A DNA stretch of 64,000 nucleotides from Somniosus microcephalus (Eukaryota). The notes below the pieces were generated by a model that saw only the letters and a list, made by a program, of their open reading frames with translations, was not told the DNA's origin and searched no databases. The number at the start of each line of letters is the position of its first letter. Positions within the stretch are counted from its first letter, which is position 1. Below, piece by piece: positions 56,592 to 63,189 of the stretch. The translations under genes and the position numbers were made by a program. The stretch spans positions 11,098,001 through 11,162,000 of the forward strand of contig CM126220.1 in assembly GCA_052327205.1 (NCBI GenBank), written 5' to 3'.

Positions 56592-57529
56592 GGCCCCGAT
56601 ATTAATGGGGAGGTGTTGGGGGGGAGCGGGAAAACCCCAGCAAAGCTGGGGACGTGGAGGTCCTGCAGGACCATCTAATTTGACAGGCTGGCCGGCTGCA
56701 GAGCAGGAAAACTAGCGGTAGGCAGCCGCAGCCGGTGACCCTTGGAAACGGTCATCGGCGGGGCGGTGGGTGTGGGAGTGAGAGATCATCAGGGCTGGGT
56801 GGGGGGAGGGAGAGAAAGGCCATTGTGGCAGGGGGTTGTGTTAGGGCATGTCAGCAGAGGGAAGGCCGAAGGCTTCCTTGAGGAGCCAGGGAGGGGGTTG
56901 TGTTAGGGCATGTCAGCAGAGGGAAGGCCGAAGGCTTCCTTGAGGAGCCAGGGAGGGGGTTGTGTTAGGGCATGTCAGCAGAGGGAAGGCCGAAGGCTTC
57001 CTTGAGGAGCCAGGGAGGGGGTTGTGTTAGGGCATGTCAGCAGAGGGAAGGCCGAAGGCTTCCTTGAGGAGCCAGGGAGGGGGTTGTGTTAGGGCATGTC
57101 AGCAGAGGGAAGGCCGAAGGCTTCCTTGAGGAGCCAGGGAGGGGGTTGTGTTAGGGCATGTCAGCAGAGGGAAGGCCGAAGGCTTCCTTGAGGAGCCAGG
57201 GAGAGCATTCCTGCTCATCCTGGCCCACAAGGAGCGCTGTGAAAGACACCTTGTTGAACCGGCAGCTCCCGCCTCCTTTTCACTGCCGTGTTTCCCGAGC
57301 CTTGGGAAACCCGCGCAGCAACTGTTAAATTTAAATCGGGCTCCCAATTGCACTGCCTGAAGTGCCCCACCTCTCGACAGCAGGACACTTCCACGACACG
57401 AAACCCACCGCCATAAAAACAGCAATGGGTACGTAATGGAGTGGGTTGGGGGACGCGTTCCCCATTTCTAAATTTTTCACCCACCCGGCAACCCCCTCCG
57501 CCCATCGTGGGGCGGTTATTGTCAAGGCC
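56592..57529. mobile_element. GC-rich non-autonomous DNA transposon-like element with imperfect TIRs, hosting the 62-bp array
   Basis: att|GGCCCCGATATTAA ... TTATTGTCAAGGCC|aat; G-rich left arm, C-rich right arm. Confidence 0.5.
56831..57202 (+). repeat. Perfect tandem array, 6 x 62 bp
   Basis: Unit GGGGGTTGTGTTAGGGCATGTCAGCAGAGGGAAGGCCGAAGGCTTCCTTGAGGAGCCAGGGA; TTAGGG at 56841, 56903, 56965, 57027, 57089 and 57151. Confidence 0.97.
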
Positions 57530-58343: not shown

Positions 58344-58398
58344 GTCGTTTGTGTTGGAAGCGTTGGAGCAATTCCCTTCAGAAGAATCATAAAACCAG

Positions 58399-58631
58399 TG
58401 TGGTAAACCACTGTTATTGTATATTGTTACCTCTGGGTGGCGCTGTGTACCAAGGCATGCCTCAGCTGACTCCGCCCACATGACCAGGTATAAAGGTGGG
58501 GGTTTCGCCGACTCACTTCCTTCTTGGAACCAGCCACCCACGAGAGGCATGCTCTGTTCTCTAGTTAATAAAAGCCTTTTCATCACCTTCCTGATTCATC
58601 GTCTTTTATGGAGTAATTGATAAGCGTATCA
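58399..58631 (+). repeat. 5' LTR (233 bp): GC box 58472-58477, TATAAA 58489-58494, AATAAA 58567-58572
   Basis: Identical by eye to the 3' LTR (offset 4100). Confidence 0.97.
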
Positions 58632-58632
58632 A

Positions 58633-58646
58633 TTTTATTAACTAGA
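58633..58646 (+). promoter_or_regulatory. Non-tRNA primer-binding site, complementary to the element's own LTR
   Basis: TTTTATTAACTAGA is the reverse complement of TCTAGTTAATAAAA (58560-58573); no TGG start. Confidence 0.8.
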
Positions 58647-58652
58647 AGTAAA

Positions 58653-61600
58653 ATGGCGACACCTGAACAGCAACAACAGCAGGCGTTGCTGCGAGCCCTC
58701 AGACCGGCATGCCTGGACCTCGACCCTCAAGCAGCGGGTTCATCAACCAATTTCGAACACTGGCTGAGCTGCTTTGAATCCTTCCTAGGAGCCTCCGCCG
58801 TGACATCGGAGGAGAACAAACTAAAAGTTTTGACCGCCCAGGTGAGCCCTCAAGTATATACGCTCATCCGGGACGCTACTACGTACACGGCGGCCCTCGA
58901 ACTACTAAAAGGGCAATACACACGCCGAGTGAACACGATTTACGCCAGACACCTCTTGGGATCCCGCAGGCAGCAACCGGGGGAATCGGTAGAGGCATTT
59001 TTACGGGCGTTACAGACACTCTGCAGAGACTGCGACTGTAAGGAGGTAACGGCTGCGGGGCACGCGGAGGGACTTACTTGTGATGCCTTCGTCAGGGGCC
59101 TCCAGTCCGACTACTCCCGGCAGAGACTGCTCGAAAGCAAGGAGCTCGACCTGAAGATGGCCGTAGCCCTTGCGCTCTCGCTAGATGCGGCCCACCGAAA
59201 CCTCGAAGCATACTCACGTAACGGCGCCGCGCCATGGCCATCGCGACCGTGGGACATGGGACCGCTGCCCCCGGCACCAACTGCTGCAGCGATGTCCCGA
59301 AATCAACTGGGACAGCCGCCCCCGGTAAGAACCGCAGCGATGCCCCGTAACCAGGCCCAAAAATGCTATTTCTGTGGCCAGTTAAAACACCCTAGAGCGC
59401 ACTGCCCGGCTAAGACCGCTACCTGCTCGGGCTGCGGGAAGAAAGGCCATTACGCCAATGCCTGCAGGGGGAAACCAGCGAACGCCAGCAGCGCCGCGTG
59501 CGAACCATGGGGGCAGCCATCTTATCCGCCATTTTGTGCACCTCCGGCCGCATGGCCGCCGCCATTTTATTCGCCCCACTCAACCGCCACTTCGTCTCCG
59601 GACTCGACCACCGTCTCGTCGGACGACCATACCGACTCACTAAGCCATACACTGGCCTCCGTTACGCTGGATCAAGCCCTCCCTCATCATCTATCCAGCT
59701 CCATGATGGATATCACGGTAAACGGCCGCGCCACCACTTGCCTAATCGACAGCGGGAGCACAGAGAGTTTTATTCACCCAGACACGGTACGTAGCCACTC
59801 CCTCACGGTCCTACCGACGTGCCATCGGATTTCTATGGCGTCCAAGTCCCATTCAATGGACGTCGGCGGCTACTGTGTGGTGACCCTTTCGGTTGGGGGC
59901 ACAGAATATAAAAATTTTAAACTTCTAGTCCTGCCCCGTCTCTGCGCTGCCGTGCTGCTAGGGTTGGATTTTCAGTGCCACCTTAAAAGTGTCACATTAG
60001 CATACGGTGGACCCCTCCCCCCACTCACAGTCTGCAACCAACACCTTTTAAATCGCCCGCCGCAAACCACCTGCAGCCTTTCCACACTAAAAGTCCCCCC
60101 CCCTCCCTTGTTCGCTAACCTCACCCACGACTGTAAACCCATCGCTACCAAGAGCAGGCGGTACAGCGCCGGGGACAGAGCTTTCATTAGCTCTGAGGTG
60201 GAGCGGCTCTTGAAGGAGGGCATTATCGAAGGGAGCACTAGCCCCTGGCGAGCCCAGGTTGTAGTCGTTAAAACCACTGATAAACGCCGCCTGGTCATTG
60301 ACTACAGCCAAACCATAAACCGGTACACTCAGCTGGACGCATACCCCCTTCCTCGCACATCTGATATGGTCAACCAGATTGCGCAATACAAAGTATTCTC
60401 CACCATTGACCTTAAGTCAGCATACCACCAGCTCCCCATCCGCCATGAGGACCGCCAGTATACTGCCTTCGAGGCGAACGGCCGCCTCTACCACTTCCTT
60501 AGGGTTCCCTTCGGCGTCACCAACGGGGTTTCGGTCTTCCAAAGGGAGATGGACCGGATGGTTGACGAGAACGCGCTGCAGGCCACCTTTCCCTATCTGG
60601 ATAACGTCACCATCTGTGGCAACGACCAGCAGGACCATGACGTTAATCTAGAAAAATTCCTCCGTACGGCCCAACGGCTGAACCTAACGTACAATAAAGA
60701 GAAATGTATGTTTCGCACCAAACGCCTCGCCATTCTCGGCTGCATGGTGGAGAACGGAGTCATCGGGCCCGACCCCGACAGAATGCGCCCCCTAATGGAG
60801 CTACCCCTCCCCCACTGCCAAAAAGCACTGAAGAGATGCCTGGGGTTTTTCTCCTACTATGCCCAGTGGGTTCCCCACTATGCAGACAAAGCTAGACCCC
60901 TCATCAAATCCACCTCCTTCCCCCTGACATCAGAGGCGTGTGCAGCCTTCACTCTTATCAAGAGCGATATCGCGAAGGCCACAATGCACGCAGTGGATGA
61001 GTCGATCCCCTTCCAAGTGGAGAGCGATGCATCCGACTTCGCCCTAGCTGCGACCCTTAACCAGGCGGGCAGACCCGTGGCCTTTTTCTCAAGGACCCTC
61101 CAGGGCCCCGAGACCCAACACTCCTCTGTCGAAAAGGAGGCCCAGGCTATTGTGGAAGCGGTGCGTCACTGGAGGCATTACCTGGCCGGAAAACGGTTTA
61201 CCCTGCTCACTGACCAGCGTTCAGTAGCTTTTATGTTTAATAATAAGCAGAGGGGCAAAATCAAGAACGACAAGATCTTGAGGTGGAGAATCGAACTCTC
61301 CACCTACAATTATGATATCTTGTACCGGCCCGGGAAACTAAATGAGCCCCCAGATGCCCTATCACGTGGTACATGCGCCAACGCGCAGGTTGGTAGACTG
61401 CAGACCCTCCACAATGACCTCTGCCACCCGGGGGTCACCAGGTTCTTCCATTTCATCAAATCCCGTAACCTGCCCTACTCCATCGAGGAGGTCAGGACCA
61501 TGACCAGGAACTGCCAAATCTGTGCCAAGTGCAAACCGCACTTTTATAGGCCGGACAGAGCAAGCCTGATCAAGGCCACTCGCCCCTTCGAGCGCCTGAG

Positions 61601-62456
61601 CGTCGATTTTAAAGGGCCCCTCCCCTCCTCTGACCGCAATGTGTACTCCCTCAACATAATTGATGAGTACTCCCGTTTCCCGTTTGCCATCCCTTGCCCA
61701 GACATGACCAGTACCACGGTCATCAAATGTCTGAATGACCTCTTCGCCTTGTTCGGGTTCCCTAGCTATATACATAGCGACAGGGGCTCATCTTTCATGA
61801 GCGACGAACTTCGGCAGTACCTGCTAGCGAGAGGCATTGCTACGAGCAGAACCACCAGCTACAACCCCCGGGGGAACGGCCAGGTGGAAAGAGAGAACGC
61901 GACGGTTTGGAAGGCCGTCCTCTTAGCCTTAAAATCTAAGGGCCTTCCGACCTCTCGCTGGCAGGAGGTCCTCCCTGCGGCGCTCCACTCCATCCGGTCA
62001 CTGCTTTGTACTGCCACTAATGCCACCCCTCATGAGCAAATGTTCGTTTTCCCCAGGAAGTCCACATCGGGAACCTCGCTACCGGCATGGCTGACTTCTC
62101 CTGGGCCTGTCCTACTGCGGAGGCACGTAAGGACCCATAAAACGGACCCCCTGGTCGAGAGGGTGCACCTCCTACACGCCAACCCCCGGTATGCCTGGGT
62201 GACATACCCAGACGGGCGGGAGGACACGGTCTCCATACGAGATCTCGCACCCTCGGGTACCCCTGAACTACCACCGTTATCCCCCACCACCCCTCCCAAT
62301 CCAACCCCTGTAGACGACATGCCGGAGCCCCAGGACCCTTCGTTGACCACCCAGACACCAGATCCGACGTTGGATGCTGCAACACCGCCGCCGCCACCAC
62401 GACGATCAGGACGTCAGACAAGGCCTCCTGATAGACTTAACTACACGAACTTGTAG
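58653..62456 (+). CDS. Gag-Pol polyprotein, 1267 aa, single uninterrupted ORF
   Basis: First ATG (AAAATGG) at 58653. Two CX2CX4HX4C knuckles (CYFCGQLKHPRAHC, CSGCGKKGHYANAC); protease LIDSGS; RT IDLKSAYHQ / PFG / YLDN; RNase H SDAS, EKEA, TDQ, DALSR; integrase HHCC with D (VDFKG), D (HSDRG) and E (NGQVER). No env or chromodomain. Confidence 0.97.
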   Translation: MATPEQQQQQALLRALRPACLDLDPQAAGSSTNFEHWLSCFESFLGASAVTSEENKLKVLTAQVSPQVYTLIRDATTYTAALELLKGQYTRRVNTIYARHLLGSRRQQPGESVEAFLRALQTLCRDCDCKEVTAAGHAEGLTCDAFVRGLQSDYSRQRLLESKELDLKMAVALALSLDAAHRNLEAYSRNGAAPWPSRPWDMGPLPPAPTAAAMSRNQLGQPPPVRTAAMPRNQAQKCYFCGQLKHPRAHCPAKTATCSGCGKKGHYANACRGKPANASSAACEPWGQPSYPPFCAPPAAWPPPFYSPHSTATSSPDSTTVSSDDHTDSLSHTLASVTLDQALPHHLSSSMMDITVNGRATTCLIDSGSTESFIHPDTVRSHSLTVLPTCHRISMASKSHSMDVGGYCVVTLSVGGTEYKNFKLLVLPRLCAAVLLGLDFQCHLKSVTLAYGGPLPPLTVCNQHLLNRPPQTTCSLSTLKVPPPPLFANLTHDCKPIATKSRRYSAGDRAFISSEVERLLKEGIIEGSTSPWRAQVVVVKTTDKRRLVIDYSQTINRYTQLDAYPLPRTSDMVNQIAQYKVFSTIDLKSAYHQLPIRHEDRQYTAFEANGRLYHFLRVPFGVTNGVSVFQREMDRMVDENALQATFPYLDNVTICGNDQQDHDVNLEKFLRTAQRLNLTYNKEKCMFRTKRLAILGCMVENGVIGPDPDRMRPLMELPLPHCQKALKRCLGFFSYYAQWVPHYADKARPLIKSTSFPLTSEACAAFTLIKSDIAKATMHAVDESIPFQVESDASDFALAATLNQAGRPVAFFSRTLQGPETQHSSVEKEAQAIVEAVRHWRHYLAGKRFTLLTDQRSVAFMFNNKQRGKIKNDKILRWRIELSTYNYDILYRPGKLNEPPDALSRGTCANAQVGRLQTLHNDLCHPGVTRFFHFIKSRNLPYSIEEVRTMTRNCQICAKCKPHFYRPDRASLIKATRPFERLSVDFKGPLPSSDRNVYSLNIIDEYSRFPFAIPCPDMTSTTVIKCLNDLFALFGFPSYIHSDRGSSFMSDELRQYLLARGIATSRTTSYNPRGNGQVERENATVWKAVLLALKSKGLPTSRWQEVLPAALHSIRSLLCTATNATPHEQMFVFPRKSTSGTSLPAWLTSPGPVLLRRHVRTHKTDPLVERVHLLHANPRYAWVTYPDGREDTVSIRDLAPSGTPELPPLSPTTPPNPTPVDDMPEPQDPSLTTQTPDPTLDAATPPPPPRRSGRQTRPPDRLNYTNL

Positions 62457-62484
62457 TACCCTTCACCCCGCCGGACTTAATTTT

Positions 62485-62498
62485 AAACAAGGGGTGAA
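62485..62498 (+). promoter_or_regulatory. Polypurine tract
   Basis: AAACAAGGGGTGAA immediately before the 3' LTR. Confidence 0.85.
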
Positions 62499-62731
62499 TG
62501 TGGTAAACCACTGTTATTGTATATTGTTACCTCTGGGTGGCGCTGTGTACCAAGGCATGCCTCAGCTGACTCCGCCCACATGACCAGGTATAAAGGTGGG
62601 GGTTTCGCCGACTCACTTCCTTCTTGGAACCAGCCACCCACGAGAGGCATGCTCTGTTCTCTAGTTAATAAAAGCCTTTTCATCACCTTCCTGATTCATC
62701 GTCTTTTATGGAGTAATTGATAAGCGTATCA
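62499..62731 (+). repeat. 3' LTR (233 bp)
   Basis: TGTGGTAAACC...GCGTATCA followed by TSD ACCAG. Confidence 0.97.
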
Positions 62732-63189
62732 ACCAGCTAATGTGCCCCCGACACTCCTGCGATGTCAAGTGACTCCGAGAGCAAATTGGACACTAGGCCA
62801 TTGTAAGAGGCCCCTGTGCAGTGACTGACTGAATGTACCAACCACTCTGGATAAAGTAGCAGCGACAGTTTGGGCACAACACCCAACTCCTGCTCTGCAC
62901 ATCCGATCAAACCATTGATTCAAGGGCCGGGTTATTCCACCTCCCTCCATCAAGTTTTACGGGGAAGTGGGGCAGTCAGTGGCCCCCAAAATTATTTGCG
63001 TGATGCCGGGGACCAGGATATATACGATAGACTGACCTCTCACCATCCAAAAGATTCACCTTAATTCCACAATAGCAGAAAATCTAGCCCATTTTTAGGT
63101 GCGTTAAGATTTGTACTAGAAATGGTGAAAAATCTTACCTATTCCATATTCAGTTTAATATATATATATATTTTTTTTTTACAATGTTT

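Follow-up and report, generated by a model that had tools for sequence, protein, structure and literature searches.

How can an LTR retrotransposon pass over the poly(A) signal of its left repeat yet rely on the identical signal of the right one? Every LTR element must do so, and the problem has been little studied in animal retrotransposons. It is raised here by an element of Somniosus microcephalus (assembly GCA_052327205.1, contig CM126220.1), in which the segment bearing the signal is complementary to the start of the leader. A helix whose partner strand is present at the left end only is a simple solution, and in this element the partner also occupies the likely primer site. The stretch of DNA analysed, termed the window, comprises 64,000 nucleotides (positions 11,098,001 to 11,162,000 of the contig, forward strand). 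Coordinates are counted from its first letter, features of the element are given on the plus strand, and L-numbers are labels of the element copies and relatives compared.

Results

A young Ty3/gypsy element

The element at 58399-62731 is young, with intact LTRs and an intact open reading frame (ORF), and belongs to the Ty3/gypsy retrotransposons. Its 5' LTR (58399-58631) and 3' LTR (62499-62731) are identical, measure 233 bp and run from TG to CA. They are flanked by the target-site duplication ACCAG (left copy 58394-58398, right copy 62732-62736), and 5-bp duplications also flank most sister copies. A single ORF (58653-62456) encodes 1267 amino acids from its ATG, comprising Gag, protease, reverse transcriptase (RT), RNase H and integrase. 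Two CCHC motifs can be read from the translation of the Gag part, and Pfam matches at amino acids 353-440, 543-698, 759-885 and 976-1072 follow in the order protease, RT, RNase H and integrase; no chromodomain at the integrase C-terminus was among the seven Pfam families found at E<=0.001. The best solved structural relative is the RT of Ty3 (E 2e-47). A polypurine tract (62487-62498) adjoins the 3' LTR.

The family is both very young and abundant: the segment 58399-58700 was 100% identical over 302 bp in 40 of 40 scored matches, from 1839 genomic candidates. A ray, Trichinella and an aphid supply the named protein relatives, and a search of viral contigs for relatives of the element found none. 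In a quick tree, built without a Tf1/sushi reference, the clade stands apart from two distant gypsy proteins (P0027 and P0028); the branches of L126 and L160 are long and unsure. About 1.1 kb upstream of the element, the window also holds a tandem array with a 62-bp period (56765-57260).

The poly(A) signal lies within an arm complementary to the leader

AATAAA occurs once on the plus strand of the 233-bp LTR, at 58567-58572, and is its sole canonical poly(A) signal. Further copies in the element are found at 62667-62672, in the 3' LTR, and at 60693-60698, within pol and outside the LTRs; ATTAAA is found nowhere in the element. The hexamer is contained in the segment 58560-58573, which is the exact reverse complement of 58633-58646 and is followed by GCC, the putative cut site lying at the 3' end of the arm. 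The partner begins one base past the CA (58630-58631) that ends the LTR. Among 5000 dinucleotide-shuffled LTRs, none had a complement to the leader start longer than 10 nt.

The earlier note on this DNA had placed the only AATAAA of the LTR entirely inside a 14-nt segment pairing with the leader, and this proved correct, as did its claim that the partner exists only at the 5' LTR: the 3' LTR, whose AATAAA has no 14-nt partner downstream, is adjoined by ACCAG and then by host DNA. Its extent for the feature, 58567-58640, does contain helix, but the full duplex is wider and spans 58560-58646.

Between the arms lies a 59-nt loop (58574-58632), made up of the remaining R, U5 and one spacer A, with predicted inner stems and a GU/U-rich stretch near 58601-58611. 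At the end of U5, a predicted hairpin of 5-6 bp (58616-58633) adjoins the primer site and is kept in 12 of 12 own-genome copies; in the consensus fold of these copies it competes for the first base of that site. The primer-binding-site position (58633-58646) begins TTTT rather than TGG, so that, on its letters, it cannot pair with the CCA end of a tRNA, and these letters change together with the LTR arm.

The helix is conserved beyond the hexamer

Junctions of the form AATAAAA, 35-65 nt, CAATTTTATT number 30,315 in the genome, against 367 for a reversed control pattern. Among 90 loci, 21 distinct arm/site pairs keep the same register throughout, with 9-24 paired bases. When the 13 distinct arm/site types of whole copies are compared, pairs 8-13 are all Watson-Crick with two to three pair types each, pairs 1-7 being set by the search pattern. 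At the first base of the hexamer, compensated changes in the own genome are not above background (68 vs 69), and the next pairs vary freely.

Distant relatives, with 38-68% amino-acid identity, were examined without the AATAAAA pattern. In 28 of 42, an inverted repeat (11-19 bp) places its second arm at the end of the LTR; of the other 14, one has a different repeat, eight are short of upstream sequence and five have such sequence without showing the repeat. The partner begins precisely one base past the LTR both in the own-genome families, where the pattern required it, and in most of the distant elements, where it did not. The helix is conserved with double-sided changes in the own genome and in distant relatives.

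At the helix end, RCC follows in 16 of 18 distant elements, and the clade-wide invariant is TAAA/RCC (the stroke marking the helix end), not the hexamer. The arm carries AATAAA or ATTAAA in 11 of 19 distant elements; a canonical hexamer is missing from the helix in the remaining eight, which have GTTAAA (five, one with an extra A), TTTAAA, GATAAA or ACAAAT instead. Near the helix of L092, of L094 and of L144, a canonical hexamer is found in the loop only. The quick tree places the arms that lack a canonical hexamer in more than one branch, with the helix retained. Because noncanonical arms occur in different branches and hexamers are exposed in the loop, the helix outlives its overlap with the hexamer. 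The distant relative L134 has a helix that ends ACAAAT, with no TAAA/RCC end, and its only nearby canonical hexamer is 48 nt upstream.

Fold-back copies as a probable record of the transcription start and the primer

Some genomic copies fold back on themselves: past the primer site they continue with the LTR sequence that lies upstream of the arm, in reverse complement. Three junction patterns returned 326, 49 and 68 partly overlapping matches, and the controls none. The 91 copies mapped (the first 30 per search, plus L170) include 47 whose left LTR is full and whose antisense arm is short, 33 with a long arm and a shortened left side, ten with both sides long and one with neither.

Of the 47 copies with a full left LTR, 45 passed a stricter self-comparison, and 44 of those have a TATA-like box. 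The antisense arm of these 44 ends at TATA+28 to +32 in 13 copies, further downstream in 27, at +20 in one and before +7 in three; 40 arms thus end at or past TATA+28, and only four reach upstream of the inferred start. RNA polymerase II usually starts near TATA+30. The boundary tracks the TATA box and not the helix arm, with antisense arms of 52-55 nt at a spacing of 82-85 nt and arms of 63-67 nt at a spacing of 94-98 nt. In the window element, the TATA box (TATAAA, 58489-58494; 76-78 nt upstream of AATAAA in most related families) would place the start at 58517-58521 (TATA+28 to +32), a position drawn from the arm ends of sister families and not from this copy. A C after the arm, the signature of a copied cap, is found in nine of 13 start-length arms vs nine of 27 shorter ones (p 0.046); it supports a capped end as only a hint, as a C usually also fits the jump target.

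Compared with the LTR of their own copy, the arms contain 15 mismatches in 2142 nt, a near-exact match that fits priming within one molecule or one family. Six palindromic mini-elements (L221, L222, L241, L245, L273 and L277) consist of a whole LTR, the primer site and antisense R-U3 up to the LTR start, and target-site duplications of 5 bp surround them. They resemble by-product hairpins that became integrated with two U3 ends, and since the duplications stand at those two ends, the fold-back arose before integration. In the 33 long-arm copies, among them L170 (of the window family), L200, L207, L218 and L278, the arm extends to the start of the LTR and the U5 side is shortened; in L170, the copy of U5 stops exactly at the base after AATAAAA, which is the putative cut site. 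The arms of L215 and L260 go past U3 and the polypurine tract and reach the 3' internal region, one possible origin being occasional priming by the 3' copy of R.

Read most simply, the fold-backs arose when plus-strand synthesis went on into an RNA primer that had stayed attached to minus-strand DNA, and copied it up to the capped end. The primer is then likely to be a capped 5' fragment of about 55 nt ending AAUAAAA, rather than the short terminal primer of Tf1; by analogy with the sister families, it would correspond to 58517-58573 in the window element. A cut after AAUAAAA is suggested by the conserved helix end and by L170. By comparison with Tf1, the cutting enzyme would be the RNase H of the element, and the conserved TAAA/RCC end hints at a fixed cut. 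The earlier note's proposal that the helix supplies the RT primer is borne out by the lack of a tRNA-type site, by covariation across families and by antisense fold-back arms that stop where transcription is expected to begin; that the element primes itself with a long capped fragment is, in our judgement, highly probable.

Predicted folding differs between the two LTRs

In the 5' context, the hexamer is predicted to be unpaired with a probability of at most 0.05 (paired at least 0.95) for every fold start tried. The predicted cost of opening AAUAAA in this copy is 6.9 kcal/mol at the 5' end vs 0.8 kcal/mol at the 3' end. Across the own families, the corresponding ranges are 6.0-9.3 and 0-3.0 kcal/mol, with the same direction in 10 of 10, and in each of the 18 distant elements compared, opening the arm hexamer is likewise predicted to cost more at the 5' end. 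The earlier note held that the 3' signal is left free; this agrees with its low opening cost, but the minimum-free-energy structure with host flank pairs it weakly to a U5 stretch. For the loop hexamers of L092, L094 and L144, the predicted 5' opening costs are 1.5, 0.1 and 1.0 kcal/mol. Masking by the helix is, on these folds, dispensable in the three elements, because their only nearby canonical hexamer sits in the loop and is predicted to be open at the 5' end.

An invariant AATAAA is what its function in the 3' LTR would by itself lead one to expect, and the need of that LTR for the signal explains it equally well; hexamer and primer are both locked once they overlap. A poly(A) switch is plausible on the folding models, and whether the helix also lowers 5' polyadenylation measurably is an evenly balanced question. 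The idea that one helix serves both RT priming and 5' poly(A) suppression accordingly stands in unequal parts: priming is well supported, but for the switch the evidence consists only of folding asymmetry and hexamer invariance.

RNA reads and tailed copies

RNA evidence comes from two raw runs of a related species. The reads are sense-biased over gag and cross U5 into the leader and gag. Coverage of the LTR is mixed across families and strands, with much read-through into host DNA and antisense signal. Neither run shows a clear start, end or poly(A) tail, and no poly(A)-tailed loose ends are present among the best 12 of 49 loose-end rows. A pile of 11 read starts at 58588 was set aside as a start, being confined to one run and to a diverged family. 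Looking for poly(A)-tailed genomic copies gave 16 overlapping matches at six places (control 6), none of which matches the window element, and none of the metagenome loci ends in poly(A).

Discussion

A proposed mechanism

On balance we lean slightly towards the reading that the 14-bp match is a self-priming helix, which is likely in itself, and that it also masks the 5' AAUAAA as a secondary benefit, adding to promoter proximity and not acting as the sole switch. The starting point is what can be seen: the complement, its presence at one end and its conservation with double-sided changes. From the fold-backs, transcription would start about 30 nt past the TATA box, and a fragment from the cap to AAUAAAA would be joined to minus-strand DNA; as the 5' fragment ends up so joined, it would be the primer. 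By analogy with Tf1, the RNA would be cut at AAUAAAA/GCC, probably by the RNase H of the element, leaving a 3'-OH. Strong-stop DNA would then span only the 59-nt loop, so that strand transfer would have only the short segment from the cut to the 3' poly(A) site to work with, which in turn would limit how far to the 3' side the arm can lie. On nascent RNA, the partner is predicted to emerge 60-73 nt after the hexamer, whereupon the helix would close and raise the cost of opening AAUAAA by about 6 kcal/mol. As the 3' LTR has no partner, its signal is predicted to stay usable.

For this widespread non-chromovirus Ty3/gypsy clade as a whole, the leader helix may be a two-stage switch, which would hide the 5' signal on nascent RNA and would later be cut in the particle at the end of the signal, yielding a capped primer of about 55 nt; we advance this tentatively, as a proposal with a little less than an even chance of being right.

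Alternative explanations

A signal in R confronts the element with the two-LTR problem, and the helix might contribute nothing to its solution. It could serve priming only, with the 5' signal kept silent by its distance from the inferred cap (about 50 nt, which may suffice in any case) and by the lack of upstream enhancers from U3, the overlap with AAUAAA being a historical accident locked by double constraint. The helix end being the clade-wide invariant, and not the hexamer, agrees with this, as do the three relatives with an exposed loop hexamer. TGTA occurs in U3 in nine of 10 families and in R-U5 in none, but is above shuffles in U3 in just three of 10. Promoter proximity and U3 enhancers are named as causes of the inactivity of the 5' signal in the accessible text on HIV-1 (PMC2645353); against this, retroviruses with the signal in R also use active suppression, according to the available part of PMC3694450. 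The gap in opening cost between the two ends is moreover large and has the same direction in every family tested. Priming alone is a real possibility, if a rather doubtful one. U1 snRNP, sitting on a splice-donor-like site further downstream, could also be the suppressor, as it is in HIV-1 and foamy viruses, and the helix would then be uninvolved. This copy does have such a site, CAG/GTGAGC at 58839-58847, about 270 nt past AATAAA, and the HIV-1 donor is 195 nt past its signal in the accessible text of PMC3694450. The site encodes Val-Ser in Gag, however, and is not conserved across families, and no joint starting at it is among those listed in the RNA reads. A strong downstream donor is present in three of 10 families and the other seven lack one up to 450 nt from the end of the LTR, so that the U1 route is not general; as the explanation here it is very improbable.

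The 5' signal might instead be used. A short capped RNA, prematurely cleaved and trimmed to the helix end, or cut with the help of host 3'-end factors, would then be the primer, possibly in trans on another genome molecule. An RNA reaching from the cap to the poly(A) site would indeed contain the whole arm. Cleavage by CPSF normally falls 10-30 nt downstream of the hexamer, however, and not at the helix end; relatives that lack a canonical hexamer share the same helix end, and the fold-back arms are nearly exact to their own LTR. Priming of this kind is quite unlikely. Less probable still is that the helix is not a primer at all but controls polyadenylation or translation, with a host RNA priming and the fold-backs arising from template switching at the inverted repeat during host DNA replication. 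The AUG is only 6 nt past the helix, inverted repeats can promote template switching, and a tRNA primer is excluded for its 3' CCA end only, so that a non-terminal tRNA fragment may yet serve. Such an origin would have to account for a partner that starts one base past the LTR end, also in most distant elements found without that requirement, for fold-back arms that stop at TATA+30, and for palindromic copies with target-site duplications at two U3 ends; it deserves very little credence.

Comparison with known systems

The fold-back copies amount to a DNA record of the transcription start and of the primer. They speak for a long capped self-primer outside the Tf1/sushi group; the clade concerned has about 30,000 junctions of this kind in the genome. 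If masking is true as well, the 5' LTR signal would be silenced in a way outside the three listed retroviral types and physically coupled to priming.

The earlier note had likened the helix to the poly(A) hairpin of HIV-1, an analogy that holds loosely. In both, AAUAAA lies in a paired structure, a predicted one here, which in HIV-1 would block CPSF at the 5' LTR (PMC2645353, as far as its accessible text goes). The HIV-1 hairpin, however, can fold at both ends and draws on balanced stability as well as on a U3 enhancer, on promoter proximity and on U1 at the splice donor, whereas the partner strand here is the primer-binding site at 58633-58646, outside the LTR and present at the 5' end only. 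Retroviruses share the problem of two identical LTRs, and three strategies are set out in the accessible part of PMC3694450: U1-dependent suppression (HIV-1 and foamy viruses), a weak site (MoMLV) and a signal in U3 (RSV, MMTV and HTLV-1). Here the signal is in R and most families are without a strong donor; the three types in that part of the source do not include masking by a helix specific to the leader. A literature search over titles and abstract openings, outside subscription journals and Repbase reports, returned no description of a retrotransposon whose primer-binding site pairs over the element's own poly(A) signal.

Self-priming has been tied to chromoviruses and some plant lineages in the available portions of PMC3601003, PMC6317226 and PMC6934838. 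For the plant elements Tcn1 (gypsy) and TAR (copia), the prediction likewise came from complementarity, over at least 10 bp, of the LTR to the first bases past it; these are plant lineages, and the accessible text of PMC6317226 draws no link to a poly(A) signal or to primer length. The closest likeness is to Tf1/Tf2 of S. pombe, Tj1 and the Tf1/sushi group, where, from the accessible parts of bioRxiv 2022.12.06.519325 and PMC4600332, the primer-binding-site position is also complementary to the element's own LTR-derived RNA, no tRNA is used and extra stems are predicted beside the central helix. Those parts do not mention a polyadenylation role of the Tf1 self-primer. Of the three-duplex 'pretzel' of that group, the central helix and inner U5 stems are predicted here, but the third helix, with post-site sequence, is absent from the 12-copy consensus fold. 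In the Tf1/sushi elements, as the accessible text describes them, the mRNA has its self-primer right at the 5' end and a chromodomain is part of the integrase, whereas here the arm starts about 40 nt past the inferred cap and ends on the poly(A) signal; the integrase here has no detected chromodomain. As far as its sequence reveals, the element works like Tf1 in priming itself, and it departs from the Tf1/sushi group in two defining features, the arm at the 5' end and the chromodomain.
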